Shown piece by piece: positions 1 through 61,972 of a DNA stretch of 64,000 bases. The DNA is taken from NCBI GenBank assembly GCA_964035575.1, contig OZ037845.1, positions 682,001 to 746,000 on the forward strand, in the 5' to 3' direction. The stretch's first letter is position 1. Each line of letters starts with the position of its first letter. The translations under genes were made by a program, and so were the position numbers. The notes beneath the pieces were generated by a model. The model searched no databases. It was not told where the DNA came from and saw nothing but the letters and a program-made list of their open reading frames with translations. Source of the stretch: Rhynchopus sp. YZ270_cl-10 (lineage: Eukaryota).

Positions 1-787
1 TAGGCTTAACAAACAGCTAGCAGGGATCGAATGGGTTACTTATGCTGGCAGGGGGGAGGCAGGAGGGGTTGCTTTAGGATACGAAAAGTATGTAAACTGA
101 TGTCACATTATACCTTAATTCAGATTGCGATGCACAGCTGGACAATATATTTTCAAAGATTTGTTGCACATGGTGTAAACGACCTCTGGGGGATTAAGAC
201 ACCATGCAATAAGTAAAATGTGAGGTCCAAAAACAAAGAAAAGCTTATAAGATGGACCTAAGCCTCTCGTGCTTAGTCACCTTATCATACAAATGAAAGA
301 GCCTCTCATGGGTGTCCACCTTAGCGCAACCTTCAAGGAAGGGCTAATGGCACAGATCTGCAATAACTCTGCTGTGAGACATGAGGGCAGGTTAGAACAC
401 AGTGGTATGGCAAAGAAAACTTGAGTGAATGTGCTGAGGGAACGATCCTGAAGAACCCACACCCTGACAGAACAGTAGTAGTAGCCTGTACAGACAGGAA
501 CTAACACTGAGGTAGTATAAAAGCAAATATATCCTTCGGCGTTCCGCTGTCTCGTAGTGTTCTTATTGGCCCGACAACGTTCGTTTTGGGTACGCACGCA
601 GAGCACCATATGGATCCAATATCGACATGAGCTTCACTTTGCGGCAACCACGTATGGACCAACGTCTGACTGTGGATAATTCTTCATGTACTCGACCATG
701 ACCTCGCTTCATTACACCCCGCTTGCGGCAACGTATGGACATGGCAGAGTACCTTCAGGTGTATCGTTGTGTCTGACTCCTTCAGCT

Positions 788-1618
788 TCACTCAACCATG
801 ACCTCGCCCAGAATGCACACCCTCCCCTCCCGACTCTTCTCCCATCGTGCAAGGTGCTCTGCACGTGAAATCACCACAGCACCGATCTCAGTCTTGTACC
901 GCATCTGTCCCCTGTGCGGTGGGTGGCCAAGGTTCACAAAGTGCACACCCTTCCCCTGCAAGTGCTTCACCATCGCACAGAGTTGTATCTTCCCCGAGGA
1001 GGGGTGCCCCTCTGTATCGCAGAAGCCCGTCAGTGATGTGTACACCATGCCCACTGCGTAGCCGATCTCACCGGCAACCAAGTTCCCAGTGGCTGTGTCC
1101 ACAAGCTCCACGGTGTAGGGCTGGAACCACGACTTGGCAGGTGTGTCGACGTCGACCAGTATACCGTCCCACACCTTTCGGAGCATCGCAAAGTAGCGTG
1201 GTCCCAGCCAGTTGTCAGTGTGGTGTTCGCAGATGCGTGACCACACTTCGTCACTCCGTGCGTTCACTGAAAGCTTATAGCGGTGCCGCCGCACCCGTTT
1301 GCGTACAGAACGACCCCAATGCAGGTTTTTGAAGTCAAGCACGCAATATTCTTTCTGCATTTCTGCAATCAGATACACGGGCTCTTGCGCTATGCTGACG
1401 AAGCCGTAGTAGCAGAAGAGGGCATAAAACTTTGGCAGCCAGCAGGTCGTGTAGTAGTACGTGGTTGCCAGGTCTGCTTCGATGCGGGCACGTGATGCAG
1501 GGTCCATCAGGGCACGTGCCCATCGACCTCCTTCACGCAACTGTTCATCCTCGACAGCATCCAACCGTATACGAGTACGTGTCAAGGTGCTCTGCTTCGA
1601 TGCCAAAGTGAAGCTCAT
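788..1618 (-). CDS. Leucyl/phenylalanyl-tRNA--protein transferase (L/F-transferase, Aat-fold) family protein
   Basis: 276-aa ORF. Contains LIAEMQKEYCVLDFKNLH and LVAGEIGYAVGMVYTSLTGF...SSGKIQLCAMVKHL, resembling the LVGGLYG...F.GESMF...ASKVAL core of aminoacyl-tRNA protein transferases. Start codon uncertain because it overlaps a repeat-tail motif. Confidence 0.75.
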   Translation of the reverse strand: MSFTLASKQSTLTRTRIRLDAVEDEQLREGGRWARALMDPASRARIEADLATTYYYTTCWLPKFYALFCYYGFVSIAQEPVYLIAEMQKEYCVLDFKNLHWGRSVRKRVRRHRYKLSVNARSDEVWSRICEHHTDNWLGPRYFAMLRKVWDGILVDVDTPAKSWFQPYTVELVDTATGNLVAGEIGYAVGMVYTSLTGFCDTEGHPSSGKIQLCAMVKHLQGKGVHFVNLGHPPHRGQMRYKTEIGAVVISRAEHLARWEKSREGRVCILGEVMVE

Positions 1619-2487
1619 CAGAGAAAAGTTGAAAGTGCAAACACCTCACCTCACCTCACCTCACCAGACACCAGGCAGACAACAAAGTGAAGGTATTAAT
1701 GCAGTCACCTCCGACTGACCCACCAGACAACAAATAAGGGGGCCCGTAATAAAATGTGTATCTGCGAAACTGCCCCTTTTGGTCCAGTTCTTTTCTCCCT
1801 GTCGGATGGTGGGTGGGTTTAGGGACGGAAAAATATGTACATAAAAAAGGTGGGAAAGGGGGGGGATCAATTTATCTACGTGTATTCTGCCTACCTCCCT
1901 GACGGAGGTTGTGGGTCGTGACCTCTCAACAGAGGCCAGAAGGGGGAGGGGGGTGGTGAAAGGTGGAAAGGTGGAAACCGGTAATTGGGAAGCGTGGGTG
2001 GGGGAAGGGAGGGTTGGCTTAACACGAGAGCAGAAAACGAGAACGAAAATTGTAGTTGAAAAACATACCCAACGCACGGGAAAAGGGGGAGGAAAGAAAG
2101 AGCGAAGGAAACCAAAAGATGGAACCCTCTTATAATAATCGTTTAAAGGCTCACATCAAAACATTTTTTTCAAGAAAAAAAAGAAAAAAAAGAAGAAGAA
2201 AAAACGCGCCAGGAATGCAAGCAGCGGATCTCCGTGGGTATTTTATAGAACCGGTTTTTTGTTTTCTTTTAATCTGCTGTTATCTGAAACGAAAAAAAAA
2301 ATCAGCTGCAATGCAAGTGGTCTGCACAGCAGTCGCCACCCCTTTTCTTTGTTACATCGACACACATCGCACATCGCCGACAAGAGGTGGGCTCTGACTC
2401 AATGCCACACGGAGTAGCTTTTTTTTTCTTCTTTTTTCGCCCCTTCTTTTCGGGGGCATACATTCGCACGTTTTTTTTTAAATAAGA

Positions 2488-2547
2488 GTTGAAGTAGTGT
2501 AGTTGCCTCGGTTGTGCTGCCACAGGTTGTGCAATCTCCACTTTCCA
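2488..2547 (-). repeat. Polar hairpin repeat family E
   Basis: + strand GTTGAAGTAGTGTAGTTGCC...GCAA(T/A)CTCCACT. Near-identical copy at 44629-44690. Shorter or variant copies at about 18351, 27561, 41491, 43394, 46190 and 52137. Confidence 0.8.
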
Positions 2548-2807: not shown

Positions 2808-3190
2808 TAAAAAGGTACAATTCAAAGAGAAAAAAAAAAATCGAAAAAGGTCCAGAATTTGTATTTTTACGTTTATTTGAGCAGATGAGTCAAAGCCTTT
2901 CATGCTTGGTCACCTTATAATTTATTTCTTTTTAGCGATGAGGCTTTGTGAAAACGGAAGCAATTGTAGTTTTCCATATTTCCCCCGAATTATCCCTGGT
3001 TTCATTCTCAGTAGTTTCGAAACAAAAAAATTCCCGTTTTTTTCTTTCTCCCATTTTACTAAAAAGCGTGGTTATATCAGCGTGATATGATAGTGTACAA
3101 AAAAGGAACCCCTGAAGACGAAAATGAGGCTACCACAGACTCACAAAAATCTTCACCAATTTTTTAAAAAAAAATTCCCCACCCTTTTTT

Positions 3191-5233: not shown

Positions 5234-6048
5234 TAAAAGAGAATGAGGTAAAAAAAGAGTGTCTTCTTTTATCTCATGTGCATGGGGGAAAGGGGGGGGA
5301 GAGGGGAGGCTTGTAAAGGTAGAAAAAGAAAGCCCTTGAGGTGTGTGTGTAGGGGGGGGGTTGGGGGAGGGGAGGCTATTTGAGTTGTAGATGAAGTGAA
5401 GTGAGGCGAAAAACTAAAAAAAAAACTGTGGGGGGGAAAGAAAGAAAACTGTAGTTGCTGATGCAGGCACCTCCGACTTACCCACGGATGAAAGCACAAA
5501 TACCCTGCGGATCAGTAGATGTAAAAAGGAAACCTAATGACCTCCGGAAAAAGGGAAGTGGTGTTGACCACCTGCTTTTGGCCGAAGCAACTTCCGCCAA
5601 ACACCGCAAAACTCAGGTCAAAATCAGTAGGTTGAGAGGAGGGGAGGGTTTATAAAGAAAATGGGAGGGGCGTTTCTTTTTGTTGGCAAAGAAGAACTTC
5701 AACACTTGTTAAAGTGAGGAGAAGAAATGAGAAGAAGAAATTTGAAATACAAAGCCCTCTCGTGAACAGTGTAGCTTTTTTTAAAAAGTGGTGTACAAAA
5801 AATTGCGCCCAAAGCACAGGGTTAGAAGTGCGACACATCAATCATGTCTGTACCCCCTAGACCACCAGAAAAGGAAAGTCGGAAGTGCCAACGTCTCTGT
5901 AGATAAAGACCCATAGCTCAACAGAAGGGAAAGCTCTCTGTGCACGGGCACACAGAGGAAACGTTTGCAAAGACGCGTCAATAGTGGTGTCACCTTGAAA
6001 CAGGGCCACAACGAAGTGTCCTTCACATGCCAGGAGACCACACTGTTA

Positions 6049-10621: not shown

Positions 10622-11077
10622 TTTGTGTGTAGACGCCTGAGTTATGCTTGAAAAAAACGCAAAAAAAAAAAAAAGGTTGGCTTGAAATGCTTGAAATTGA
10701 AATACATCATCTCGGTGATAATGTATCTTGGATGACCAGAGGGGGGGTACCACGTTGGACCAACCATGCAGTGATATATCCAATAAAGTGAAGTTGAGTG
10801 GTGCAAAAGATTAAGATATAATTTTTCAATCGAAAGATGGAGTTTTTATCCACCAGCGTCGTCTGGGTGCAAAAGAAATGCCTCTGGGAAGTAGGTACTG
10901 ATTCTGTGGGTTATTGAAGACCGAGAGGGGGGAAAGGAAAAAAAAAAAACTACAGAGGGGATTCGATTCTACTTTGAGAAAATAAAAAAAATCACATTTT
11001 TGGGGAAAGATATTTTGACAAAAGGTTGAGGATATGGAAAAACCGTATCCTCCGTACAAAAATAATACAACAATAAT

Positions 11078-12951
11078 TCATAGGTCGTCATAGTAGCGCC
11101 CAGAGTGGGAGTGGCTGGCCGAAACACCACGGGCAGGAGAGCTGACGAATTCTAATGGGGGCGGCTCGTCTCTGAGGATGGAGGGGGTGCGTGCGGGGTG
11201 GACGCTGTGCGGACCTTGGAAGGGCTGTGGAGGATGCTTTCTGCTAAGCGGACTGCTGGGTGGCTGGATGGGCATTCTCATTAGACCATGCGAAGTGTGT
11301 GGCGACTGCGTCTTCACTGGCGACCCCGGCTTATGTCTTGCCCAAAAATCCTCTGAATTGACAAAACCCCATTTCCCATCCTCCCATACACTCACACAGT
11401 GCGGATCAGAGTTCGCCCAATTCGAAGCAAAATACGCAAAATACGCTTCATTAACAAGCAAAGGATAGTCGTCTCCCTTCGCAACAGAGCAGAGTGGATG
11501 ATCACTAAACCCCGCCACCGTTTCAATTTGCGCAGTAAGGTCTGCCCAGAACGTTTCTGTAACCGGAAATGAGAAGGATCCGGTGCTATCCTGGACCTTT
11601 ACTGAGATGCGGTTGCCTGCATGGGAAGGGGAGCGAGAAGGGGAAGGGGAGGGACGTCCCTGAGGAAGATGTGAGATGTGCAGCTGTGTGTTGTAGCCGT
11701 CACTGTCAGATCCACTGTCAGAGCCTTCGTCCTCCTCAGGCATGAGTTGCGACATGAGCTGTCCCCAGACCCGCTCGTTCTGTTCGTTTGTCATCTCCTG
11801 ATGCGCAAGCCTCTGCTCGCTGGCCTGTCTATTCTGTTGGTACAACGCCTGGAGGTATTCCTGATACTGCTGCTGGGAAGACTTCAGGTATTCGTTGAAC
11901 TGCGTCTGGTGGTCGTTCGCAAGCTGCTGCTGTTGTTGCAGCTGGTCTTGCCATTGCTTTGCGGTTTCCGTCACTGCTTCTAATTCACGCCGTCTGGTTT
12001 CAAGCTGCAGCTCGGCGAGCTCTCTTTCTGCTTGAAGCTGCTCTATGTTGGCACGCAGTGTGGATGCAGCCTCTTCATCACGTATGGACAAAGGGCGTGC
12101 CTTAGCGGGCGACGCAGGGGACGATGCGAGAGACTCTTCATAGCCACTCCCCTGTGTGGGCACACCGGATAGCCTGTTGTTGCGTGGCGGTGGTGGCGGC
12201 GGCTTTGCACCATTAGGGAAGTCTTGCTGCCCCGGAAGCGGAAAGGTGGTAGGGCTCTGCCCGCGTGTCGCCTCTGCGTTCTTTGCCTGTGCACGGGAGT
12301 ATTGCTGTGCCTGCTGTGCGTCGTCCTCCGCCTTGCTCACCTCAAGGTGCATCCTCTCGCGTACGCTTGGGGCATTGGGCTTTCTGATGGGGAAAGAATG
12401 TAAAAAGTTGGGGGGATGGGGGTGGCATACTTTTTCCGTTCATCCTTTGGGGACTTCTGTGCCACCTCAATAGGTGTTGCAAGCGTTGTCACCTCCAACG
12501 GTGCACACCCTGTAGCCTCACGCACCTTTTTGATAATGGTGAGAAGGTGCGGGAAGTACTGAGCTGGCGCTGCTGACGTATTGCGTTCGTCGATCTTTTC
12601 GTGAAGGAGAAGGTCCTCTTGGCCTGCAATCTTGAGCAGTACGCGTTTCTCACTCTTGCAGGTGTATGCTTCCGTGATGTCTGCTATCGAGAACAACCTC
12701 TTCGCATCACCCTCCACTGTACACAGGTGTACCATCAGCGACGTTACAATGCACACCCTAGTCACTTTCCCCTCCTTTGCTGTGATGCGGTTGCAGATAA
12801 TACAAAACCTCACCTCATGTTCATCCCCACGCACAAAGTGTGCAGCAGCCGTCCGCACCTTGGCAGGAAGCTTCTTTTCTTGAAAGGCCCCCCGTTTGTT
12901 CGGCGATGTAGGTGTCCCTACAGTGCCTTGTGTAGTTGGGGAGCCAGGCAT
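11078..12951 (-). CDS. PH/TH1-like domain plus coiled-coil protein, 2 exons (12951-12431, 12383-11078), 608 aa
   Basis: Two overlapping ORFs are fused exactly by a 47-nt GTATGC...CATCAG intron at 12384-12430. The N-terminal RVCIVTSLMVHLC...KRLFSIADI...VLLKIAGQEDLLL segment has a beta-rich PH-like pattern, followed by a Q/E-rich coil. Confidence 0.8.
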
Positions 12952-14741
12952 TTGTATGCTTTTTTATGCTCCAAAAAAAAAAAAATGCCTCCTATTTTGT
13001 AGGTATTGAGTGGTAATGGAGGGGAGTTTTTGTTTTACAATAGCGCAGTATGGTATGCCCAATATAGGGAGGGGGTAGGACAGTGGGGACGCCCACATGA
13101 AATATCTCTTCCCTGGCCAGCCGGAAAAATAACAAGTAGTATTTTCTTACAGGCAACACTACTTATGGACGGTGCTAATATAGCTGGCCTTATGTCGGGC
13201 TTGCCTTTAAGAGGAGGAGAGAGAAGGGGACAGAGAGAGGAGTCGGGGTTACGTATATTTACTTTTTCTTGAATTTGTGTGTGTGGGGGAAGAAATAGAG
13301 GAAAAACACCCCTTGCAGAAACCGCTAAGGGGGGACAAAAAAAAAAAAAAAAAAAAAAAAAAAAACAGATACTCAGGGACGCAGGTACTGCTCCAGGAAG
13401 GTGGGGGTGGTCTCGAACACCCCCCCTGGAGTGTTGCGCTAGGGAGTTTGCTTGGAAAAGGGGAGAGACGAGGGGGGAAAAGTAAAATAAAATAGTGAGG
13501 GGCAAGTGTGTATGCGAACGGTCTGTCGTCGCTCTCGGGGGGGTGTGTGTTATGGATACTGTGTGCTTTTGACTGGAGGTCTCTATCCCTTTGCTGGTGG
13601 TTCACATCTTATTAATGTGCCCCAATAGGGGGGTACTGCAGAAACCCGTTCTATGTAAATTTCCCCCCAAAATATGGTAGAGCTGTTGCCCCGAGTGACC
13701 CACGATTCGATGCAAGTCCCGGATAAAAGCAAGCCAGGTCTTGCATAAAAAAACACTACACCGCAAAAGGCTAGATTTGTTGGGTGGGAAAAGAAGTTCG
13801 TCTATCCATTGTTGTATATCACAAAAGGGGGAAAGAAAAATAATTTTGAAAGATGAATGCACCTCTCTGTGTACGCACACCTCTCAAAAATAGGAAAAGA
13901 GGAGAACCGGTACTTCGAAAAAAGCAAGGCAAGACGCAAAACCAAAAAAAAAAAACCCCCCCCGGGGGGGGTTGAATACCGATTGGAAGAGAACAACTTT
14001 AATAGCTGCCGCTGGCCCATATTTTTTTTGAGATAGGTTTTTGTGTTCCAAATAACACAAATAATTGGAACCTGGACACAATGAGGACTAAAAAAGGACA
14101 TTATATCACTTACACATTAACACAGATACCGTGCACCCACCTAACCCAATGAGATAAAAAAGGAACAAAAAAATGTATGTCACAAAAAAAGTTGAAAATG
14201 TGAACGCCTCACCAGACATCGGCGGACGCAAACAAAATAATCTGAAAGTGCAAAAGACTCAAAAATTCCTGGGTTTTTAGAGAAGAACCAACGACAAAAA
14301 AAGAAAAAATATTTATGGGATGAACCTCAGCCTCTCGTGCTTAGACATCTTTAAAAAAAAAAAAATTGAGAGATGAACAATGCATCAGTTCAGCTGCCTT
14401 CTGAAAGGCAGGTGTGGGATCTTAATGAAAACTGATTTCCCGGAGGGAAAACAAAAAAAATATCAGAAAATACAAAAAATGGGGGAAAACTGAAAAAAAA
14501 GGAAAATAGACAGTTGTTGGAGGTATAGGAATGTGTTGGGAATACATACTGCAAGGTCGCATAATCTGGCAACTCTACACAAAAAAAAAAAAATCGTATT
14601 CTTGAAACACTTCTTTTTCTTTCCAAAGAACCTAAACGAAGAGAAAAAATTGAAACGACAGCAAGGTTATAAGATGAGCCCTAAGCCTCTCACTATCACA
14701 TTCGCTACAAAAAAATGATTTTACCCACATCTATATGGGTA

Positions 14742-14847
14742 CAGTTTGCCGCAATATTAGGGAATATGTCCATTGGGTGGACCCAATATCTCCCCATGAA
14801 TAAGTCACCCTACAATAAAACACACCCGCAATATTGCGACTAAACTA
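14742..14847. mobile_element. Degenerate TA-flanked MITE (Tc1/mariner-like ends)
   Basis: TA-CAGTTTGCCGCAATATT ... AATATTGCGACTAAACTA-TA imperfect inverted repeat. Confidence 0.45.
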
Positions 14848-14901
14848 TAAAACAAAAAATATCATTTTCGTGATCTCTCTTTTTTTTTTGTCCCCCCCCT
14901 T

Positions 14902-15897: not shown

Positions 15898-15999
15898 CTT
15901 TGTGTAGAACTTTCTGAAGAATGTTGAAAATAGATAAAAAATGTAGAATGAACCGAAATAATCACAGTGAAATCGAAGCTGAAAAAAAAAAAGAAATGA

Positions 16000-16917: not shown

Positions 16918-17034
16918 AATGAGGGGATAAAAAAATATCTTTTTAGAGCGAAACCCTTTATTTTTGTTTGTGAAAACAAAAAGAAAATTCTCCTTTTTTG
17001 TTGTACTCGAAACGAATAAGATAGATTTTGTTTT

Positions 17035-17730: not shown

Positions 17731-17823
17731 TTTGAGAATTTAAAAAAAGTGTGTAAAGGATGGTGTAAAGGTAGGGTGGATGGTGGAGGGGGGAGAAGTC
17801 TGTGATGTTTTGTGGTGAAGCAA

Positions 17824-41191: not shown

Positions 41192-41215
41192 GTTCGAAGA
41201 AAAAAGGAAAGACAA

Positions 41216-45280: not shown

Positions 45281-45319
45281 TTATAAGATGAACCTAAGCC
45301 TCTCGTGCTTAGTCATCTT
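45281..45319 (-). repeat. Polar hairpin repeat family C (best copy)
   Basis: + strand TTATAAGATGAACCTAAGCCTCTCGTGCTTAGTCATCTT. Copies at about 245, 14313, 14667, 18391, 26015, 32661, 51421 and 52279. Confidence 0.9.
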
Positions 45320-46354: not shown

Positions 46355-46815
46355 TGGTGCTTCCCGGGGGGTATGCATTTCACAAATTTTCACAAAATGT
46401 GACAAGTTTTCACAACACGAAACCCGCTATTAAATTGTGAAGGCTGGTGAAAAATGGTGAAAAATTGTGAAAAGTTGTGAAAAGTGCGAAAAGTTGTGAA
46501 AAGTTGTGAAAAGTTGTGAATTGATTTTTTTTTTTTTGGGGGGGTTTTTTTTGGGTTGGGTGGTGGCCCACCCATTGAGGGGTATGCTGGGATTCACAAG
46601 ATAGAACGTGATGTGGTGTACCTGTGTACCTGTGTACTGTGCGGAAATGACGAGAACTTGTCCATTTCGGCAAATTGACCCCACCACTGGCCGGACGGAT
46701 TCCGGAAATGCAAATGCCGGCATTTAAAGGCTTCACCAACGAAGAAAAAAAGGGTGGTGAAAAGTTGTGAATTGAATTGAAAATTTGTGAAATGCATACC
46801 CCCCGGGAAGCACCA
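46355..46815. mobile_element. TGGTG...CACCA family MITE, 461 bp
   Basis: Perfect 38-bp TIR TGGTGCTTCCCGGGGGGTATGCATTTCACAAATTTTCA. 5-bp TSD CAAAA at 46350-46354 and 46816-46820. GAAAAGTTGT 10-mer arrays. Confidence 0.92.
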
Positions 46816-47103
46816 CAAAAGAAAGAAAAAATAGGAAACTGAAGTACCGCCCCCCCCCCCCCCCACACACACTCGCCCTAGCTCTCATTTTCTCAGCAGC
46901 ATTTGAAGCAAGGCAGGTGTGTCTTCCATCCAACCATCCCAGAAGGCTTTCTGACAATGTACAGGGGGTGCTTGTTGAACAGCTGTTCTGGTGTGCAGCC
47001 TTCTTTGCCTGTTTTTGGAAGGATTTTTTTTAAATGAGATCCATAAAAAAAAAAACGCCCTTTTGCTGGAGTGCAACATTCTGTAGATGCTGGCAGATAT
47101 AAA

Positions 47104-47218
47104 AAGGTGATGTTATTAACGTAGGCACCTCCCGCTGACCCACGCACGATGCCAGCTGGACGAAAGTAGTACCCTGCGTGCGGCCAACAGAAGATGGAAA
47201 AGGAAACCTAAGTAGACC
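47104..47218 (-). repeat. Polar hairpin repeat family F (longest copy)
   Basis: + strand consensus AAGTGAAGTTATTAATGCAGGCACCTCCGACTGACCCAC...GATGAAAGCACAA. Copies at about 1684, 5451, 29921, 32591 and 49631. Confidence 0.8.
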
Positions 47219-47326
47219 TACCCGCACCGTAAGAGAACGAGGGCGGTACACAACCGCTCGTCAAGCCGGTAACATGCTACATTCTAAAGTTTTGCAGTCA
47301 TCTTGAAAATAACTGAATAGGTTTGC

Positions 47327-48629
47327 TTAGTACATACTCAACGCTTCGACAAGATTCTGCCTTTGCCCCCTGATGACAGCCATCTGCCCCTGGAACAGCG
47401 ACTCCGTCATGATCTGTAAACAAAAGAACATTGCGTTAAAGGGTGCGTACTAACACATACATCGTCGCCAAACATGATCTCGCGCATCTTCTTCTCTGTC
47501 TTCGCCATCCAGGAGGTGGAGTTCAGCTTCTCGAGGATGTGCTCTCTGATGACGCGGGTGAAGGCCTGCTTCCCCAGGGGGTGCGAGGACCAGCTGGGGG
47601 GGTATGTTCTCCAGTTGTCCGGATGCTGTAAAAGATGGCATTTTTTTTTTGTGTTTTTTAAAAAAATCATACTTTGTAAGGAAAGGCGAGACCGTTATCG
47701 ATAGCATGGATCTTCACTTTGGACCCTGAGGCTGGGGTGTGTGTCAGCCAGTTGTCAAGCCCGCGGTCGGTGTTGCGGGTCATGTAGTCGAGGCAGACGA
47801 GGCGTTGGAACTGGTCGAGGAGCGTTGCCTTTTGCTCTGGGGTCATGTTGTCGGAGTTGACGTTGCGGCCGTCGCCGTTGCATTCCACAAGGAGTTGCAG
47901 CGAGCCTGTCTTTTGCGGTAGACGCGGCAGACGCCTCTCAATGGCGTTGTAGTTAAACGCCTTTGCAGAGAACTTCACGATGCTTGTTGGGGGCACTACC
48001 CGCAAATCAAGCAACACATCCATCACAAACGCCGCCGCCTCCGACAGATACCCTGTATTCGGCAGCAAGCACGACCGCCCAAAGCAGCACGGACACATCA
48101 CACGATGCAGCCACTTCCCCCACTTTGGGTTTGCCGGGCCATATGGCTCCTCCGACTTTGGCTTGAAAATACCTACTCGGGTACCATGCTTATCAAACAC
48201 CCAGTAGCTTCCTGATGACCCTGCGACGACAAGCTCTGGGGGATGCTTGCCGGCCTCGATTGCGGCGCGGATTGACTCGACAATTGCGTCGTAGCGAGAC
48301 GCAGCGTCGTAGTACACGGAGTTGTGGTTGGGGAGGTCGATGGAAGGTGGCGGGCCGCTCCGTGTTGAAAGGAACGACAGACGGTTTGACAGAGACAGAC
48401 GACTGCGGTTCGGCAACCCCCCATCACGCGGAGTAGAATTGGTTGTCCCATCCCCATTCCCCAACAACGGTACATGATCCCCCAATCTCGGGTCATCAGA
48501 CGCACCCCCCGGCGAACGTCCCACCTGTGTATCCATATCCAACAGCGGCTCTGCAAGAGTCGTAACCTCACGCCCAACGCTCCTATTCAAACTGTGTCTC
48601 TGTGTAGACCCCCCTTCGCAATCTGACAT
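47327..48629 (-). CDS. PI4K2: Phosphatidylinositol 4-kinase type II, at least 3 exons (48629-47673, 47625-47461, 47413-47327)
   Basis: GSSGSYW, IFKPKSEEPYG, CPCCFGRSCL (palmitoylation motif), LDYMTRNTDRGLDNWL and AIDNGLAFP. Two 47-nt introns restore KHPDNWRTYP and QMAVIRGQRQNLVEAL. Extreme 3' end uncertain (another GTATGT at 47337). Confidence 0.93.
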
Positions 48630-49387
48630 GTACGACCCAACTGTGCAAGACCCCAACAAGCCCTCCGGTGTGGGCTTGTGGTGAGACACGATATGGGGGG
48701 GGAGAGGTGGAGGTGGAGGAGGAGGGAGGAGGTGAACAGAGTTCTACCGTGTTCTTCTGTGAGGTGGGAGAAGAAGTGTAAGAAGTGTAAGAAGTGAGAA
48801 GAGGTGGTTATTTTTGAGAATCGAAACTCGGCTCTTACAGTCGCCAACTAATCTTGATTATTCGACTAGAAAAGGGGGAAGATTATTTTCGTTGAACGCA
48901 GCCAAAAACAGTGTATGAGATCTGAATTTTTGGCGCAAGTGATTTTTAAAGGGAGGGAGAAAATAGTCGGTATCAGGCGATTAAACGTTGGCTTTATTAT
49001 TCGAGTTTCTAATAACACTACGTGTAAGGGAGAAAAAAAATGTTGCATTTTTTTTTGTTTCAGTTGGTACACGGTTGTGGGAGGTACTGTGTGGGGGGAA
49101 GGGGGGGGAAACTCACACCCAGTCAGAGGGATAGGTTTGTTGCCGAAGGGGGGGATGTGCGGCTTTTGTTTCTTGTGCAAACGTTCAAAGAAAATTTGAA
49201 TGCATATCTCTGTGTACACACATCTGAAAAGAATAAAAAAAAGGATGCAAGGCGAAATCTTTTAAAAAAGGGTAAAGATTGCATGAGCAGACGCAATATA
49301 GGTGTATGAGGAGATGGGGTGTGTTATTTGAGTAAGTGAAATGTGAAACCGCATATTTATGCGGACATGAATGGTGCTACCCACCAT

Positions 49388-49549
49388 GAATCGTCGCTTC
49401 ATGTGGTGCTATACGGGCGGGGTTTCACAGCTTTACACACATTTTCACAGCTCGCAACAACTTTCCACTATGGGGCATGGTGTATGAAAAGTTGTGAAAA
49501 GCGGTAAATCCCCGCCGCCCCCGTTTTGCACCACATGAAAGCGACATTC
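49388..49549. mobile_element. Degenerate palindromic element with TGGTG...CACCA core (49404-49533)
   Basis: Imperfect IR GAATCGTCGCTTCATGTGGTGC / GCACCACATGAAAGCGACATTC, with TTTCACA/TGTGAAA internal motifs. Boundaries ambiguous. Confidence 0.55.
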
Positions 49550-52500
49550 TTCCAGGACAATTTGATTGCTGAGCAGCCTATCTTCTTACATTCTCACATA
49601 AGATGGGGTAAGACGTCCCAAATCAGACAGAAGTGAAGTTATTTATGCAGACACCGACTGACCCACATACGATACCAGCCATCCAAATGAAAGCACAAGA
49701 AACACAGAATAAATGTCGGAACCTTTCTTTTTACCTCTTAACTCAAAGAGATCTATTGGCTGATCTATGATCGTCTCCGTGAGACCCGCAACAGGCTGTG
49801 AGAGCTTAGTATGAGAGTCTGTGAGAGCTTACTGAGAGCTAGTGAAAAAAAAAATCTCTCCCCGTTCATAGATCGCCCAATTATCAGACGTGTTATAAAG
49901 AACGACAATAAGATGTGTTTCTAAACTCTCCCCACATAATTGAAGAAGGGAGGAGAGGGTGGGATTTCCGCTATCGAGGTGACCAACGAACAAAACAAAG
50001 AGTCAAATAATGTTTTTGACCAGGAAAAAAAAAAAACAGACGAAAATTTTAGAGGAACAAAAAAACAAAAAACATAGCGGAAAAAAATGACAAACCCATT
50101 GGCGCAATAAAATAGAATCTGACTCCAGGATATGGCAACTGAATACAAAGAAAGGAAAATAAAAAAAACCAACTTTTTTCGTTTTTCGCTCTGCAAAATG
50201 TGTTGAGTTTTTCATTGTATGAGTGTGTGAGGTGTGGTAAAACAAAGTTGACTTGAAATACAAAGCCCTCTCGTGAACAGTGTACCTTGGTACAAATACT
50301 AGATGAAAAACAATTTTGCAGGCACGAATCGTCCGTCGATTATATTTCCTCTTGCCAAGGCTTGGAATAAAAAAAAACTTGAAATGAACCCTTAAAAGGC
50401 ACTTTTTTTTTTTGAAAAAGGGTGGGAATGTGAGGGAAATGAGTAACAAAACGGATTTTCAGAACTGAGCTATAACTGTGTGTTTTCTAAAACAAAAGCA
50501 AAGAAAACTTGATAGATGATGTGCTTCTTGAGCACACACATCTAAAAATGAAGTACGGGACAAAAAAAAACACCTGAAAAAGTTGTAAACGGGGTGTAGA
50601 CACATAGCCCATTGGCCCTCAATTGGCTCTGTGGCAAGGGTAAAAAAATACTTGAAAGATGAACTCTGTGCACATCAGAGGGGAAAAAATGGCACCGAAT
50701 ATCACCATTATTTGTTTGACTTTTTTTCTTCTTCTTTTTTTCAAGTGCGCTTTGAAATATTGATTTTGTTGCATCAGTCATTATTCTTGAAATTGGAGCC
50801 AACCAAATTCATTGATAACAACGATCCACAAAAAAAAATCATCACTTTCCAAAATAAGCGTATTTTTAATTTAACGAACGGGCCCTCAGTTTCTCTGCAC
50901 AAAGACTCTATCAGGGGATGTATGGAGAACAGTATAGCATTTACGATTTCACTAAATCCCAAAAAAACCCCCACCTGCATTATCACATTTTTTGCAACCC
51001 ACTTCAATCATGTACTCGCGACAACAGCGAGTTTGTAAAAAAATGTACTTTATTTTCAAAAAAAAAAAACAAATGTGTAGTTGAGAAACGTATGCACAGA
51101 CGCCTCTAGGGCGAGGCACTTTGTGGTGGGAACGGAAAATGAGCACATCAACAAACCCTGTAGTTTGACTTCTAGGGCGGCATAGGTTGGTTTGTGATGT
51201 AATCGAGATGCGAAAAAAGGGGGGAATTTTTTGTCAAAAAATTTGACAACGTGTAGACACTACCTTTGTGTGAATTCCACGCTTTTTTTTTTGCCAAGAC
51301 AAATTGCTAAGCCATCTCGGTGTTTAGCCATCCAGGTCGGGAGGAAAAAAAAAACTTGAAAGATGATCTCTTCAGCGGCGCACATATCTGAAAAAAAAAT
51401 AGGAAAAGAGAATTGTTGGAAAGATGACCCTAAGGACTAGAGTTCTTGGCCATCTTAAAAGACAGAAAGGAAACAACTAATATGAAAACGTACGAAGGTG
51501 GTAAGATTAAAAAAAAAAAAGTTCTACTCGGCCAAGTCTCCAAATAAAAATGAGAAAAAAAGGAAAATGCATAGTGCAAAACGCCTCCGGGACGCAGGCA
51601 CTGTTAAAAAAGAAGAAAAAAAATGGGGTGGTTTCTTTGTCTTTCAAAAAAGGCTCTAAAATATGAACCCCAAGAAAGAGAAAGAAAAATTCAAAGAAAA
51701 GAAGAAAAGAAGAAAAACAAGAAGAGACTGGCTGGCGTTTCTTTCCCTGTCATTTTTTTTAACGGAAGCACACAACAAGACATTTTTTGAGCAATATTCC
51801 AAGACATTTTACTCCAAAAAAATGCATGTCATGGAAGGAAAAAGAGAAGAAGAAAAAAAAAAAAAAAAAAAAAAAACACCAGATCACTCTCTCTGCGAAT
51901 TTGTTCAGAGCTATTCTGTGGTTTTTCGCTGAGGAGATAATACAGGTGTAGGGAGAGTCCTGATAAACAGGTAAGCGGCATTACCCGCCTTGCAAAAAAC
52001 GGTACACGTGTCTCTTTTTTTTTAATTTATTCACCCCTTCACCAGAGGTGAGTTCCGACTACTCAAATGACCCTTCAAAAAGGGGTTAGGATACTTCCTT
52101 TGCATGTCCCTCTATATTTATTTTTGCAGTTTTTTTTTGAAAACTTGGTTGTATTAGTGTAGCCACCCGAGGATGCACTCCTCCTATAATTTAATTTTTC
52201 TTTTTTTGCAGTGAATTTCCCACTCACAAAGACTATACTACACACTACTCTTGACAAAAAAAAGAGAACAGGTTTTGGTAAGACGACCCTAAGCCTCGTG
52301 TGGTTCACCTTGGTAAAAAAAAAAGGCACTGTCACTTTCTTTCAAATGAGACGAGGGTGGAATAACTGGGGGAGGGATGAAAGAGAACGGGGGAAAAGGA
52401 TGCCTTTGCGTGAACGGCAGAACCCATATCGTATGTTTGACAGATGAAAACAAATGAAGAAAAAAAAATGCAGATTTTTTATTTTTTTGTTTGGGAAAAC

Positions 52501-52768
52501 GAACGGTACCTAATAGGTGCACACAACATCCTTCCCTTCAGGGTACTACCACTCACATCGTTACAGGAAGACAGTCCATCAGCGTCAAAAAAAAAAGGGG
52601 GGGGATTGTACTACGCTTCTCATGCACATCCAAATCCAGAAAAAAACCCCCCAAAACCCCGAAAAAAAAATCCTCCCCTATAGATCATCATTGTACAGTG
52701 CTCCCAAAAATACCCAAAAATTTCTTCTTTCTCAGTGTTTTTACTCAAAGAAACACTATAAAAAAATA

Positions 52769-55700
52769 TCATTTTATCATTGCAACAGCACCGCGGTTGA
52801 AGCTAAAGACGGTTTGATCGTCTGTTCTAAGGTCTGTTCTGGATGGGTCGTAAGAATGCTGGTGGCAGAAGCGTTGTGCGGCGTCTCCTGCGGAACGGTC
52901 GCCCCAGTGGAGGACGTCGACGTGCTTGCCGAGCCATCTGTAGCGGAGGTTGAGGAACTCCTGGTCCCACTCTGGCACTCCGTACTGGATGCTTTCTTCG
53001 ATGAGCAGGTCGTGGTGTTCGTCCCTCTTTCCGTCGTGGCGTCTCTCCGAGCCCAGCTTCTTCATGCGCTTCCAACACTCCACACCCGTACCTTGGCTTG
53101 CGTACTGTGATACAAATATGTCGACCGTAATTTCACAGCTAATTTCGCTTTCTTGCTTGAGAAGGTGGAGAAGCGCTTCGATGAAACGGCGGTGGCCTTC
53201 CAAGGCTTTGACGACTGCGATGATGTGGATTTCGAGTTTGGCGTTTTCGCGTCCTGCGAAGGATTCGACGTAGCGGTGGAGCTTGGAGACGTTGCGACGG
53301 ACGGCGTCGTCGGGGCGGGTCAGAGAGAGGTTGAGGTCGTTCATGACTGCGGTGACGTTGTGCACCCCTTCGTACTCTCCGATGAGGAGGATACGCCCTG
53401 CACCGCCTTCGTCTAGAGGGACAATAGCCTCGGAGGCCTTCAAGCCGTATGGCCCTTTGACGCAGATCTTCTTGATGGACTCAGAGCTCATGAGAACCAT
53501 CTCGTCGGCGTTCTTCGTCCATTCGTTGCCAACCTTGCTGCAAGTGACCTGAATTCTGACTGTCTCGTCTTCAATTTCGGGTGCCGTCAATACTGCTCCA
53601 GGTTGCCAAGTGCCGTCAATAGAAGGCACCTTGACTTCAACATATTGTCCCGCCTGCTGACGCGCCATCTTCCCGCCTTCAGGTCTGCGTACCCGGAATT
53701 CCACTCCGCATGCATTTCCTCGGTGGGATTTGACAGTGTGGACCTCATCTGCGATGAATGTGGTGCTTGCCTTATAGCGTAGCGCGAACTCAGCAAACAC
53801 AACCAAGATAAACGGCGCGAGAAACACAATCGTCAGATATTCCCACTCAAACCAACCCTCCAATCCGTGGACCATGAACAGAGCGAGCAGAGGCACGTAC
53901 ATGAAGTGGCCCACCTTGAAGAGCAGGGAGTGCTGTGTGAGCAGGGTTGTGAACATGATGACCAGGAGCAGGAAGAACATGATACACCCGGTGATCACCG
54001 GGTATGTCTTGAGGATCTCTGTCTTCGAGATCTTCTCTTCGCCTGCTGTACCGAGCGACGTTCCAAGCACTGCATTGATCTCAGCGGCTGACCGGTCTGT
54101 CATAGTCTTCAACACATCTGCAGACGCAACAATATGCGCAATAGTCGTCAACAGCACCAAAACACCTAACGCAAGATGCCAATAAGACCTGCTGGTCTGC
54201 CCCCCATAAGTCTCCTGCAGCCTGAACGGGATGCGCGACAGCACGTTGTGGCACCCCGCCACCATCGCCAGCCCGAAAAACCAATTAATGTACATCCCGC
54301 TTGTGATGCAAACCCCAAGAGACCCACCAAAGGTGTTGCGTATAGCAGTACGCTCGATGAAGCGGAGGAAGAAGACCAAACCACCAAGCAGGATCACGGA
54401 CATAATAAAGAGAAGCACAACAAAGTAGCGTTTTGCCCAGCCGAGGAGCTGTTTTTTTGGGGGATGTTTTTGTGTGTTCTGCCAAAAAGAAAAAGACAAC
54501 AAAGGACATACCAACCGGATCCCAAACTCAGGCACCTCCGCAGGGTCGGTCTCGATCTTGGGGCGGATGTTCAGACACAGGTTGGCGTACATGCCCCATG
54601 CTTCTTCGGAGACATCGCCCTCTTGCTCCACGCCCTGTGGGTGGTTGGGGGGTGATGGGTGTAGGTGATGGGGAAGGGAGGATGCCAAGTGGTGTCTGTG
54701 TGCAGAAAGACATACCGGTGCAGTACGCAGTGACGTCCGCTTGAGATGCTTCTCCCCCAAGGGCTCCGGGAAGCGCACGATCATGTACCCTCTGTGCGGT
54801 GTGGGGTGTGTGTTGTGATGTTTGATTGCTTGACCTAAACGTAGAACATAAGACGATACTAACACATTGTTTAATGAAATGGATGACAATACAGGTTACA
54901 AAACATACCGTTGCCTAGGGTCTCTTTTCACTACAACACCCTTTTGGTCTCGGATTTCTTTGTTTTTGACGTCCTGGCAGATGACTTCGTGGCCGGGCTT
55001 GAAGTGGACACGGCCACCACGCTCTGTGGAGAGAAGCACTTGCGTCAGGACAAAACGGTGCAGGCCTTGACGCTTCATCTCTGCGAGGAGCACCTCGTCT
55101 GGGTGGTCTTCTGCTTCGGGCGACCACGTGTCCTCACGGAGGGCACGCTTGTAGTCACGCAGGAGACGCTGGTACATGACGTCCACCGTGTCCTGGTTGG
55201 CATACGCACTGTAGTCTGCCTCCTTCCGCAGCCACCCAAGCATGCGGTGTGTGTCGTCCATGCTCACATACTCAGCGTCTTTATCCCCAGAGCTGAACAT
55301 ATCAATCAACAAATCCACCTTGTCATCCGCGCAGGTCACTGGAGAAAAGATCAACAGATGCTCCAACAGCATTTCAAAGGTGACGACGGGTTTGTTGCAG
55401 CTCCCTGTCATCATCGCATCGATCTGTTCTGTGCCGACACGCACCGCATTCCCCATGACGCGTGCACCATCTGATGCGCGGGTGGTGAGAAGCAGTTCGG
55501 ATGTTTCCCCCTTCAAACCAAGAAGCTGCGAGGTGGTGGTCACCGCCTCGGAGAAGCAGTCGCCTTTGTGCTCGTCGTCTCCGTCGGCTATTGCGGATTC
55601 GATTGAATCCATCATTTTGTTGAGACCTTTGAGCACTGCGGGGGGGTATCCGAGACGGAGAAGGGCACGCACACGCGCTTCCGTACGTTCACTGTATGCA

Positions 55701-56347
55701 GTACGCGAAACTGCTGCCCAACGGCGGAATTTTTCAACATCCAGGTCGCCCCCTAATGTGTCCCGAATACACTGATCACGCGCCGCCTGCATCATACTCC
55801 TGATCTTCATGTTCTTCCATGCAGGCAAGGCCTCCAACACCTTCTCATGCGGCTTGAACATATCCCCAGCACCTCTGTCGAAGTACGGTGCCTCCTCCAT
55901 GCCCCCATCCCCTAACCCACCGTACTGGAAGCGCGACACACCACTCATGCTGGTCTTCGCTCCGACGGTCGGGCTGTACTGTGGGTTGTACAGTGGTCCA
56001 TCAAGGTCGGGGGCCTGCGGGGGGAGTCCTATACCGGGTGGACCTCCGTCGACAGTACGTTTGTTGGAAGAGCCTCCGAGGTTGAGGCCAAGGGGAGGGG
56101 GTTTATTGCTGAGGGGTGGTGTGGTGGGTTCCATAGCGCCAGGCCCGCTTTCGTGTCTATCTAAGTCGTCTCCGGATTTGATTGAGGTCGCCTTCGTCCA
56201 CGGTACACCAGGGGACGGCTGTTCCGCTGGTATGTCCATCGTGAATGCATCCATCTGCTCGGCCTCAAGTTCCATGTCAGCAGTCGCCCCTTCCTTCCCG
56301 ACACGCATATAGCCACTGCTCGAGTGGCGGCTGAGGTTGAAACTCAT
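52769..56347 (-). CDS. NOX/RBOH-like ferric reductase-family protein with degenerate EF-hand region, 4 exons (56347-54909, 54791-54716, 54634-54512, 54448-52769), 1105 aa
   Basis: EF-like VTFEMLL...DDKVDLLIDMFSSGDKDAEYVSMDD. Bis-His helices YWHLALG...IAHIV and VGHFMY...MVHGLE, then GQYVEVKVP and KGPYG. Three GTATGT...CAG introns give an intact frame. Confidence 0.85.
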
Positions 56348-58049
56348 AGTGTTAGTAGAGGGCTTTGTTTAAAAAAAAAGCTCGAAAGCCCCCTGGAGAA
56401 AAGGTTGAAGAGGAGAGGAGGGGAGGAGGGAGAGGGGGAGGGTTTATTAGATGATGGAGAGCAGTAATCAGTGTGTTATGAAGTGAAGTGGTTGTGTTCA
56501 AAAGAGGAGAGCAGCAACAATCAGACCTGTTGAGTTTGACATAATTTTTCAAGCCCCACCGAGGGTGCCGTGACTTTGTTGGCCACCTCTGGCCGAATGG
56601 TTGTGTTTTGTGCATCATGTTGTTGTGTGGAGACGGAAGTGTGCTCAGCAAGATATGTTAAGGTAGAAAGGTTTTGGTTTCAACAGCCGAGGCTTCAATC
56701 CAAATGCCAAGTTTATCATCATCGGGTGGAGAAAGGAGTGTGCTGTGCTGTGCTGTGCACAACAGCATGTGGTGGAGAGAGGAGCATCTGCGCCCACCTA
56801 GACTAGGGATAGAGCGCACATTACAGCACCTTCCCTGTGCGGGCGGCGGTTCAACTTCGCAAGAGACAGCAAGCAGAACGAACACACTAGGGAGTTCAAG
56901 AAAAAGAAGGGAAATCAAATAGCCACCAACTGATCTCTTTTATAAGACAAATGTGTGCATTATTTTTTCGTGGAACGCAACATTGCATGTAAAGGGGGGA
57001 ATGGGGAAAAGGGGGAGATGAGACGATGCAGGTTCTTCGTGGCGTTGGTAAAAGAGAGCATTTTCATCATATGCAATCAATAAATTGATAGTATATGAGG
57101 AGGGATCAACAAAAATGTTCCCAAGAGAGGAGGGTGTTTTATTGTCGAGTTTAGTGTGGAAAAAAAGGTTGAAATACAAAGCCTCTTGTGGCTGTGTATG
57201 GAAGAAAAAGAAAACTCGGAAAAAATACACCCAACGTCATAATATGCAAGAGAAGGCAGGAAATGGATCCTTGAGAACACATATTTAACGAAGAAAAAAA
57301 AGTTGGCTTGGAATAAGCCCTCTCGTGACAGTGTACCCAAAAAAAAGTGAAGTTGGTGCAATACAAACGCCTCTGAGGCTAGCAGGCACCGACACTCTGT
57401 GGGTTAAAAAAGGGGGTGATAAAGTAAGCAATAACATGCTTTGGTCACCTAGAGAAAAATCAGGCCACGTCAGAAAACGAAGAAAACTTGAAAAGGATGG
57501 ATGTTACTTGCAGCGCACACGCATCTTTAAACAATACTATTTTTTATACAAAGATTCAAGGTGTATGTGCGAATATAATTGTGGGGAAACGTGAAAGACG
57601 CAAACTTCTCGCAGTTTTGGGTAGAATTGAAAACCGGGGAAGGCACTTCATTGGTATTCGTAAAGAATGAAAAAGACAACATCTGCACGTCAAGTGCACG
57701 AGAAAGAACGGAAAATTAGATTCATATACTTTCAGTTCACAGAATTGAGTAATATGAATCTGGGGGAAAGTTGAAAAAGACGGGCCTGCGGGGGCGCACC
57801 CTCGCTATGTGGAGAAACTAAAGAATGCCCCCTTTTTTGGCAAATCTGGGGTGGCTGGCAGTCCTTTCAAAAAAAAAATAGTCACAAACGTATAACCACA
57901 CAAACCTCCACCTCCAACCCTCGAACTCGGCACTCGTTGTTCGCGGTTTGTTCAGATCCTCTAAGGGAAATCAAAATTTCTGTTTTTCATTTCATTTTTT
58001 TCGCATTTTTTTTGAAATTATTTGGGGGTAATAAACGCCGTTTGACCTA

Positions 58050-61000: not shown

Positions 61001-61398
61001 CAGGAAAAGACTATGGGGTTGATTGTGATTGGTGGGTTTGAAAATATATCTGTAAACCAGGAATTCGTTGGCAGGCTTTTCTGCCCTTCGTACGCTCCCC
61101 ACCACTCCGATTTGCTTTGAACGGAATATTCAAAACAAGGATTTGGGTATTGCGTTTGGTTGCATTCAGTTCCGTTCTTCAAGGGCCACCCATCCACCAT
61201 AGCATGTGGCCAGAGGCCTACTCCATCAGGGGTCGATCGGTTAATCAACGAAGCAGACCCATCGAAGTTCATGAAGGATTCGTTTCCGGAGTACATTTCC
61301 GTTGGCGCAAGACATGGATTGCACAGAGGTGTCAACACAAACTCATCTGATGCGGCAACTCCTGCAATGAGTGGGGCAACTGCGATCCAGACCAACAT
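58050..61398 (-). CDS. Secreted glycoside hydrolase family 81 endo-beta-1,3-glucanase, 4 exons (61398-60203, 60112-59983, 59829-59707, 59609-58050), 1002 aa
   Basis: Signal peptide MLVWIAVAPLIAGVAA. Motifs LPTNSWF, RGSPYVT, LLMLALPHH, DFGSGGYNDHLFHYGYY, DWYAGHSWARG and ESSSEAMQAYY. Three GTATGT...CAG introns join the ORFs in frame. Confidence 0.92.
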
Positions 61399-61972
61399 TG
61401 TGTTGAGGAGATAGGGGAAGGGGGGTTTGGGGGGGTTGCAGGTTGTTCGATTATAGCATAATCGTGTGTAGGTTTTGTGTCTGTTAGGGGGTTTGATGCA
61501 GTGTAAAGATGTGAATGAATCTCGTCTTCAGACAAATATATCGTACGTTAGCAAAACAGTACATATAAATTGTCAGGATAAATTGGGTGTAAAAAAATGT
61601 ACCGAATGAAAAAAAAGTTGGTTTGAAATAAGCCCGTGATAGTGTACCTTGGTGCATCGACTGTAACGGGGGGTGGACACCCAACCATGTAATCCTACAT
61701 CCATTTCGTGATTTACAAAGAAAAATGTCCCTTTATTTTTTTGAATAATTTGAAGGCCGGTTCATTGCTTTGTGGCTTTTTATTAACGCTTGTTTTGAAG
61801 AGAAAAAATAAAATGTAGAACAGTAGTGCAAAACACCATATTCCAATCCCACCTTGAAAAAGCTAGATTTTTTTTTGTGGGAGAACTTTCTTCTTTTCTT
61901 CTTCTGATGGTACGGCCCTAATTTTCGCCAAAATTTTATCATGCAGCCTCTTCGTTTGTTCCTTCATTTTTT

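Follow-up and report, generated by a model that had tools for sequence, protein, structure and literature searches.

The stretch analysed here, hereafter the window, is 64 kilobases (kb) of DNA from Rhynchopus sp. YZ270_cl-10 (contig OZ037845.1), the non-coding parts of which are populated by short repeats, each a predicted hairpin followed by a tail; these repeats are the subject of this study. All genes with a Pfam match, namely those of an L/F transferase (leucyl/phenylalanyl-tRNA protein transferase), RPS9, a calpain-like protein, a PI3/4-kinase, a GH81 glucanase and TBP, lie on the minus strand. The RPS9 protein (7486-8052, minus strand) is 91% identical to that of Diplonema papillatum; its identity is 89-93% to four other matches and ~65-72% to other eukaryotes. 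The introns follow a GTATG...CAG pattern, which is the one reported for Diplonemidae (PMC12621601, in part; "in part" marks a source cited for a portion of its text). The RPS9 identity, the all-minus genes and the intron pattern together show that the window is diplonemid nuclear DNA, a piece of one unidirectional gene cluster. D. papillatum arranges up to 120 genes in one cluster and has spliced-leader trans-splicing, long 3' untranslated regions (UTRs; median length about 800 nucleotides, nt) and genes of RNA interference (RNAi), which encode Dicer, Argonaute and RNA-dependent RNA polymerase (PMC10161547, in part).

A sequence-only reading of this DNA had proposed more than 50 such modules in six families (A-F), all in non-coding DNA and all co-oriented with the genes, and this description was borne out. 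With iterated nhmmer at E<0.05, 57 copies were found (A 11, B 11, C 12, D 9, E 8 and F 6); all 57 are on the minus strand, which is the gene sense, and none was found on the plus strand or in the reversed-sequence control. Every copy is non-coding, including the one at 35301, which had been flagged within a gene span and proved intergenic. Relaxing the threshold to E<2 added 13 minus-strand matches, all non-coding, and four plus-strand matches, all within open reading frames (ORFs; E 0.17-1.4); the reversed-sequence control then gave one match. Outside two tandem arrays, self-BLAST of the window returned 104 high-scoring pairs, of which 75 are direct and 29 inverted. Copies of the hairpin-tail families match one another as direct repeats only, and none of the 29 inverted pairs joins two of them; other repeats of the window are found in either orientation. 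A covariance model of families C and D gave 19 matches with E below 0.03, all on the minus strand and every one a training copy; its nine weaker matches comprise five minus and four plus, three of the latter being palindromic shadows of minus copies.

Copies per intergenic interval track interval length, and four of the 14 intervals are empty, including one upstream of RPS9. A few copies precede a start codon or acceptor by 4-96 nt; from most, the nearest start is hundreds or even thousands of bases away, and no copy was found in the introns of the window. Target bias alone, through A-tracts, had been named beforehand as a possible cause of the polarity. T-runs of five or more number 391 on the sense and 226 on the antisense strand, a ratio at which base composition cannot produce a 57:0 polarity; family E lies in A-runs yet has the same polarity, therefore T-tract targeting cannot account for the orientation. 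T-tract target bias was rejected as the cause on these two grounds. A reading as terminal-inverted-repeat elements, such as miniature inverted-repeat transposable elements (MITEs), was dropped because neither the polarity nor the tails follow from it. The copies are listed in Table 1, where, as in the text, a copy may be named by its family letter and first position.

Table 1. Hairpin-plus-tail copies of the window, with candidates picked by eye.
Positions	Strand	Family	Remarks	Evidence
245..283	-	C		nhmmer
1623..1650	-	B	partial; 4 nt upstream of ATG at 1618	nhmmer
1685..1723	-	F	clearest target-site-duplication-like case: flanking 11-bp non-homopolymer direct repeat TTTGTTGTCTG	flank test
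2488..2542	-	E	long; A9 downstream	nhmmer, tail test
2876..2916	-	C		nhmmer
5450..5499	-	F	long	self-BLAST, nhmmer
5740..5779	-	A	short, hairpin only	nhmmer
10677..10781	-	A	long, diverged; compensated stem, 3x TTTCAA, T14; 56 nt upstream of ATG at 10621	nhmmer, fold
13367..13432	-	B-related	T-arm-like hairpin, 3'-truncated, then T29; by eye, outside the 57	
13846..13882	-	D		nhmmer
14313..14351	-	C		nhmmer
14667..14697	-	C	partial	nhmmer
17827..17909	-	B	full length: AGATGTAAAC leader, T-arm/B-box-like hairpin, 3' hairpin, tail	nhmmer, fold
18329..18379	-	E	A-tailed	nhmmer, tail test
18388..18428	-	C	head-to-tail with E18329	nhmmer, covariance model
19617..19654	-	A	short, within T-run	nhmmer
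24982..25006	-	D	weak	nhmmer
25098..25134	-	C		nhmmer
25733..25763	-	C		nhmmer
25785..25862	-	B	long; T-arm-like hairpin	nhmmer, alignment
26013..26046	-	C		nhmmer
26549..26599	-	B	short; 9-bp flanking repeat	contig depth (26564), flank test
27095..27184	-	A	long; AGATGTAAAC start	nhmmer, alignment
27560..27609	-	E	A-rich site	nhmmer, tail test
28429..28477	-	B		nhmmer
29145..29181	-	D		nhmmer
29918..29953	-	F		nhmmer
30420..30463	-	B		nhmmer
31145..31192	-	B	diverged	nhmmer
31460..31496	-	D	8-bp flanking repeat	nhmmer, flank test
31740..31776	-	D		nhmmer
31972..32052	-	B-related	long; T-arm-like hairpin; by eye, outside the 57	fold
32437..32476	-	D		nhmmer, contigs
32490..32570	-	B-like, C-like	adjacent (32490-32530 and 32534-32570); below nhmmer cut-off	covariance model
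32588..32638	-	F	long	nhmmer
32656..32695	-	C		nhmmer, contigs
32750..32800	-	B		nhmmer
33186..33300	-	A	full-length exemplar; AGATGTAAAC start	nhmmer, contig breaks
35301..35336	-	B	weak; intergenic	nhmmer
41491..41534	-	E	63 nt upstream of inferred trans-splice acceptor 41428	nhmmer
43379..43425	-	E	A22 tail; sole copy of the 57 in two-orientation repeat islands	nhmmer
44621..44684	-	E	long	nhmmer
44776..44852	-	A	long, 5'-truncated; 8-bp flanking repeat TTTTATTG	flank test
45044..45083	-	A	short	nhmmer
45281..45319	-	C	exemplar	nhmmer, covariance model
46190..46221	-	E	short	nhmmer
47107..47143	-	F		nhmmer
49196..49225	-	D		nhmmer
49633..49679	-	F		nhmmer
50247..50295	-	A	short	nhmmer
50509..50543	-	D	exemplar	nhmmer
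51356..51389	-	D	10-bp T-rich flanking repeat	nhmmer, flank test
51416..51456	-	C		nhmmer
51562..51605	-	B		nhmmer
52137..52186	-	E		nhmmer
52276..52311	-	C		nhmmer
57167..57199	-	A	short, diverged	nhmmer
57302..57338	-	A	short; in T-run behind B57347	nhmmer
57347..57397	-	B		nhmmer
61617..61717	-	A	long; between TBP-like and GH81 genes	nhmmer
10790, 14192, 18458, 26898, 27000, 28515, 31096, 33532	-		none individually significant	by eye
42022, 44452, 45706, 50650, 51078, 51236, 57425, 57766	-		none individually significant	by eye

The by-eye candidates, which lie within 10790..57806, were chosen on the minus strand and are no test of polarity.

The units are 35-125 nt in length, most of them being a stem-loop alone of 35-55 nt. 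Folded separately in the gene sense, the six families share one predicted fold. A lower stem begins with AG(A/G)U and ends with YAUYU or CACU; it is followed by a small pyrimidine internal loop and an upper stem of 4-6 pairs, often GC-closed, the loop of which often ends in GAG; the 3' tail is of UCAA type (TCAA, CAAC or ATAA in the DNA). The AG(R)U-type 5' motif occurs in 50 of the 57 copies (background 34%), G(A/T)G(R)GC in 31 (background 8%) and TCAA within the last 34 nt in 33 (background 16%). In the window the C+D covariance model found no A, B, E or F copies; since it does not cross families, the common fold rests on the separate folds and the motif counts. A loose hairpin-plus-tail scan was barely discriminating (91/516 sense versus 62/499 antisense). 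A tighter, sequence-light descriptor gave 22 sense and 10 antisense matches, with ~7 in shuffles; it reached five families and recovered only 14 of the 57 copies. Where A, C and D copies begin, a T-run and, after it, the AG of the element itself look like a splice acceptor; pairing of this AG, predicted for the lower stem, might hide it.

The predicted structure is better as sense RNA: the sense strand folds better in 46 copies and the antisense in 10, with one tie (p 7e-7), compared with 269 sense versus 300 for background windows and 29 versus 20 for the copies under DNA parameters. Among 20 C/D copies, 81% of the stem cells are paired (70% when shuffled), 10 of 12 pairs have changed on both sides, and one pair alternates between G.U (11) and A-U (8) in 19 of 20 rows. 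Non-Watson-Crick stem cells on the sense strand are G.U rather than A.C, by 31 to 1 in family A and by 16 to 3 in the C/D lower stem, where these pairing and wobble counts are not independent events, the copies sharing ancestry and the structures having been drawn on the sense strand. Family A by itself has little covariation (2 of 11 pairs), its sequences being too uniform. The hairpins are modest in energy, and whole long copies fold no better than shuffles (z -1.7 to +1.9, six sense folds). The hairpins claimed from sequence stand as a shared, sense-preferring fold, and the covariation looked for is present in C/D and scant in A.

The long A and B copies carry, in addition, a leader and a second hairpin. 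As had been stated, the longest ones start with AGATGTAAAC, a leader found in three sense copies (A27095, A33186 and B17827) and in no antisense one. The second hairpin of the long B copies contains GGTTCGA, ~18 nt from the 5' end, which resembles a T-loop and which we take to be B-box-like from the box consensus.

A U-tract had been placed behind every tail. For the families other than E, a T-run of five or more is indeed found behind 30 of 49 copies (background 24%), and their flanks are T-rich; behind all eight E copies it is instead an A-run of 8-22 nt (background 7%), even where the 5' flank is not A-rich. The flanks of family E, which are A-rich, contain 53% A before and 69% A after the element. 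With machine-set ends and 8-nt slack, the direct repeats flanking the 57 copies sum to 302, compared with 260.9 +/- 9.1 for mismatched same-family pairs and with 250 +/- 13 (maximum 278 in 40 sets) for pseudo-elements at equal spacing; flank repeats of 8 nt or more occur at nine copies, versus 4.05 and 2.6, respectively. An earlier flank test (p 0.019) used hand-set ends, with B31972 and B13367 in place of B35301 and D24982.

The copies are concentrated in ordinary non-coding DNA, with 55 in 28.4 kb compared to one in 8.3 kb of repeat islands of similar T-run density; the islands were delimited after the data had been seen, and one copy falls outside both sets. The islands (19720-24900, 41560-44600 and 46230-47100) consist of repeats in two orientations, with 10-nt TTCACAAC-type arrays, CGCCCGAA palindromes and GGTACGC motifs. 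At 42-44 kb their DNA depth is very high, but an RNA-like run, described below, almost lacks them; the islands are possibly transcription start or stop sites, or silent chromatin, within the unidirectional cluster.

Five public runs contain the stretch, none of them recorded as RNA. In the contigs of run X2, summed DNA depth reaches 1.69e6 at 33199 (family A) and 1.39e6 at 26564 (family B), compared with about 100 for single-copy DNA (about 95 in the comparison for 26564). Summed contig depth is not equal to copy number, and it suggests, as an order of magnitude, some 10^4 copies for family A and as many for family B; genome-wide, the elements appear to number in tens of thousands. Contigs of other loci break on A33186 at 33180/33182 (3' end), 33214/33225 (hairpin foot) and 33301 (5' end). 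Among the 12 of 727 X2 loose ends listed, at least 186 and at least 94 contigs exit from full-length A at the 3' end into a plus-strand A-run, at least 76 and at least 135 at the hairpin foot, and at least 55 at 33301, where the flanks are unrelated (agreement 0.42). Six other-locus contigs among those listed span the whole A unit at about single-copy depth. Family A thus has one fixed 3' end, as had been claimed for the tail, and two preferred 5' ends, the hairpin foot or AGATGTAAAC, rather than simply the variable truncation that had been described. At other loci no strand change occurs in 30 listed joints between neighbouring repeats (15 of 1137 and 15 of 129).

One contig of run X5 has 21 loose letters at its start, a CAG/G junction at 41427, and ends at G/GTATGT at 37874; given its AG start, the loose letters and the stop at a GT donor, X5 is very likely a transcriptome, as inferred from this one contig. 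X5 contigs with unique flanks cross modules (e.g. 31361-31789 and 32020-32472). The X5/X2 depth ratio is 0.2-0.7 at modules, 0.006-0.03 at the repeats of 42-44 kb and ~0.15-0.2 in single-copy DNA near the calpain-like gene. As contigs show no strand, ends or level, X5 establishes the presence of the modules in RNA only.

Taken together, these observations indicate that the elements are, on balance, probably minimal SINE-like retroposons (SINE, short interspersed nuclear element), copied by target-primed retroposition through the 3' stem-loop and UCAA-type tail. Of the origins offered by the sequence-only reading, this one fits best with the homopolymer tails, the duplication-like flanks, the very high copy number and the folding of the RNA strand. 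Stringent enzymes of long interspersed nuclear elements (LINEs) recognise a compensated 3' stem-loop followed by a short-repeat or poly(T) tail (PMC3747384, in part). Similarly, a borrowed non-long-terminal-repeat (non-LTR) reverse transcriptase would recognise the predicted 3' stem-loop and tail and copy the RNA to new sites. Sense copies would be transcribed for free in polycistronic precursors or read-through RNA; with every sense copy transcribed, a promoter would be dispensable and a single fold would be carried by many sequence families, each copy being a possible source. At a nicked site, the U- or A-rich 3' end of the RNA may prime by pairing with an A- or T-run complementary to it, and priming at runs would leave short T- or A-rich duplications, with E going to A-runs and the other families to T-runs; tail type and target type do agree family by family, which is what pairing of the RNA 3' end with the nicked target predicts. 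The hairpin-only form would arise where copying or RNA processing halts at the foot of the stem.

The one-way orientation could come about in two ways. Insertion may be tied to the template strand of transcribed DNA, an option slightly favoured because the copies avoid the apparently untranscribed islands. Alternatively, antisense copies may be removed, as they would form duplexes with sense transcripts by the thousand, and the lineage possesses RNAi genes; in human transcripts, inverted SINE pairs are under-represented (PMC5080714, in part). A bolder version, which we consider unlikely, is that of promoter-less minimal RNA replicons, in which the stem-loop is cut from polycistronic transcripts, A- or U-tailed and written onto the template strand, doubling as a genome-wide RNA regulatory or 3'-processing signal.

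Several points weigh against the retroposon reading, including the limits given above with the summed depth, the wobble counts and the islands and the scant covariation of family A. The flank-repeat excess is not significant at 4-nt slack (p 0.066); most of the flank matches are homopolymers, and an element inserted within a run would leave the same picture with no duplication at all. No empty site was seen. The 91 non-coding frames of the window gave no Pfam match above cut-off and no reverse transcriptase partner; no longer parent element was seen among the contigs, in which flanks past the 5' end disagree. A 5' end preferred exactly at the hairpin foot is atypical of random 5' truncation. 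The B-box-like motif occurs in long B copies only, where the space for an A box is too small. Finally, the window contains no strand switch at which the orientation could flip.

That the elements, whatever their origin, are domesticated cis-acting RNA elements, retained in sense because a protein binds them in long 3' UTRs for control of decay, translation or 3'-end formation in the manner of Leishmania SIDERs, we regard as unlikely as the main explanation. Such a role would be in keeping with the long 3' UTRs of D. papillatum noted above, with a single fold retained across divergent sequences, with the copies in RNA-derived contigs with unique flanks, where the modules are not depleted and the island repeats are, and with the poly(A) of family E, which starts 10-20 nt behind the stem like a cleavage and polyadenylation product. 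However, selection on source elements would preserve the structure just as well, the nested and head-to-tail placement of copies is that of insertions, and the empty intervals and the dependence of copy number on interval length do not suit it; X5 contigs pass through the modules, so these are not obligatory transcript ends. Because of the empty intervals and the tracking of interval length, the constitutive RNA-processing signal suggested from sequence is unlikely; a regulatory role would be compatible with either a retroposon or an HUH origin. We judge it very improbable that the tail and U-tract form a branch point and polypyrimidine tract for trans-splicing, presented by the hairpin: CAAC with a U-run may resemble a branch site and a few copies do lie just upstream of a start codon or acceptor, but most are far from any start, family E bears an A-run, the introns lack copies, and what stands in front of the inferred acceptor at 41428 is a C/A-rich tract.

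Movement as single-stranded DNA, by non-autonomous HUH elements of Helentron/HINE, Replitron or IS200/IS605 type, is in our view unlikely. It would yield the polarity directly, from a coding strand exposed in transcription bubbles or as lagging-strand template, and would suit the imperfect subterminal hairpin, the T-runs on both sides, the two defined ends and the frequent TCAA. HINEs insert at T-rich sites with variable T number (PMC4067079), Replitron-1 makes variable duplications with fuzzy ends, so duplications are compatible with this mode (PMC10288648), and Helitron-like ORFs are reported from D. papillatum (PMC10161547, in part). The strand preference of folding, however, is strong as RNA and weak as DNA, family E has an A tail and an A target, the bases 5' of the hairpin are not conserved in the alignments, the long copies have neither an 11-13-bp subterminal inverted repeat pair nor a direct terminal repeat, the flank repeats, including a complex one of 11 bp, are in excess at 8-nt slack, and no HUH or TnpB frame is among the 91 frames of the window; of these points, the folding, the unconserved 5' bases and the flank repeats weaken the IS200/IS605 lead of the sequence-only reading. 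Least probable is that mitochondrial constant regions or other high-copy non-nuclear DNA lie behind the depth, the nuclear copies being debris like nuclear mitochondrial DNA segments (NUMTs). Diplonemid NUMTs are numerous (PMC10161547, in part) and summed depth cannot locate copies; yet hundreds of contigs with unrelated flanks carry full-length A at about single-copy depth, and fixed ends and a single orientation are not expected of NUMTs.

In the sea, diplonemids count among the most abundant eukaryotes; like trypanosomes, they are thought to rely on post-transcriptional control, acting via long 3' UTRs (PMC10161547, in part). At ~two structured elements per kb of non-coding DNA, always in sense here, the elements are a direct candidate for a 3'-UTR signal. 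As transposons they would rank among the smallest mobile units described and would be far more strand-polarised than SIDERs, and whether biased insertion or selection against double-stranded RNA is at work would become testable in one genome.

Other features of the window were also recorded. On the minus strand lie the L/F transferase-like gene (788-1618), the GH81 glucanase gene, which is split by an intron (58050-61398), and a TBP-like gene bearing long acidic extensions (61973-63295). The ~10 kb of 24200-34360 hold no convincing ORF and are covered piecewise by the RNA-like run X5; they may be a very long 3' UTR or a non-coding transcript, and contain 20 of the 57 copies. A ~1.4-kb repeat in an intron of the calpain-like gene (36255-37614, plus strand) has antisense ORFs (frames of 226 and 313 amino acids) with no Pfam or Atlas match, and thus offers no evident partner for the elements; a single homolog was found, with 99% identity across 44% of the query. 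At 16440-16829 and 22739-23379, on opposite strands, are interstitial tandem arrays, pure in sequence, with units of 5, 7 and 9 nt (TACTG and GTGTATACT; TACACAG and AGTAC). Two repeat pairs are in opposite orientations, a palindromic 95-bp MITE-like one (29273-29374 and 33748-33854) and a further one (20907-20959 and 49756-49807).

Searches against known systems gave no identification. Rfam, which had been proposed as a check, contains no known non-coding RNA or cis-element family that matches above gathering threshold in the 64 kb, two sub-regions giving chance-level matches with none near threshold; ARAGORN gave no match there either. Exact patterns had no match in metagenome contigs, viral contigs or prokaryotic genomes. 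No description of the elements was found in literature searches on diplonemid repeats at the level of listings and abstract openings, the large supplement of PMC10161547 (repeats, UTRs), which may bear on this, lying outside that search. Compared to SINEs, the elements are short, non-coding, interspersed and of high copy number (a depth ratio of about 10^4, as an order of magnitude) and have a 3' homopolymer or short-repeat tail; an RNA polymerase III head (tRNA, 5S or 7SL, with A and B boxes) is lacking, and therefore we call them SINE-like and not classical SINEs.

Like Leishmania SIDER1/2, which are several hundred bases long and the nearest case among euglenozoans, the elements occupy intergenic or 3'-UTR positions in euglenozoan polycistronic clusters, with a sense bias. 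SIDERs, by contrast, amount to about 1,850-1,990 copies in a genome, with a sense bias of only ~4:1 and an antisense enrichment in spacers (PMC2689281, in part), and the ingi clade has a 77-nt 5' signature and poly(A) (PMC12278014, in part). No 77-79-nt signature with poly(A) was recognised here, as judged by length, T-tails and Rfam and not by direct signature comparison. As in the right end of IS200/IS605 and in Replitrons, there is a strand-specific imperfect hairpin with TCAA near the 3' end, a motif of IS200/IS605; in those ends, conserved guide bases 5' of the hairpin pair with the cleavage site. The elements differ in that no 5' guide is conserved, the tail often extends past TCAA and direct terminal repeats are absent; no Y1 transposase or TnpB/Fanzor partner is among the window frames. 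They are short interspersed euglenozoan elements like SIRE of T. cruzi, a short VIPER derivative that inserts in pyrimidine tracts. VIPER and TATE lack duplications and have split direct repeats; our elements have duplication-like flanks, in excess at 8-nt slack, and no split direct repeats were seen. For trypanosomatids only these two, INGI and CRE are given (PMC12278014, in part).

Helentron-derived HINE/DINE-1 elements are likewise short and very abundant, with a 3' stem-loop and T-rich sites of variable T number (PMC4067079). The elements here differ from them in the A-tailed family E, the excess of duplication-like flanks and the RNA-type G.U stems, and no subterminal inverted repeats of 11-13 bp were visible in the long-copy alignment or the inverted self-BLAST matches. 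Mammalian L1 and Alu lean to the template orientation, opposite to that of the elements here (PMC10030826, in part). A close likeness is to stringent SINEs (partners of RTE, CR1 and L2) and to the poly(T)-ended plant SINEs Au and p-SINE, which also combine a compensated 3' stem-loop, a short-repeat or homopolymer tail, duplication-like flanks and high copy number (PMC3747384, in part). Unlike these, the elements are mostly the stem-loop alone, have no complete tRNA head and no known partner LINE, and are all in gene sense; they are SINE-like in their workings, unusually small, and one-way to a degree that calls for an explanation.

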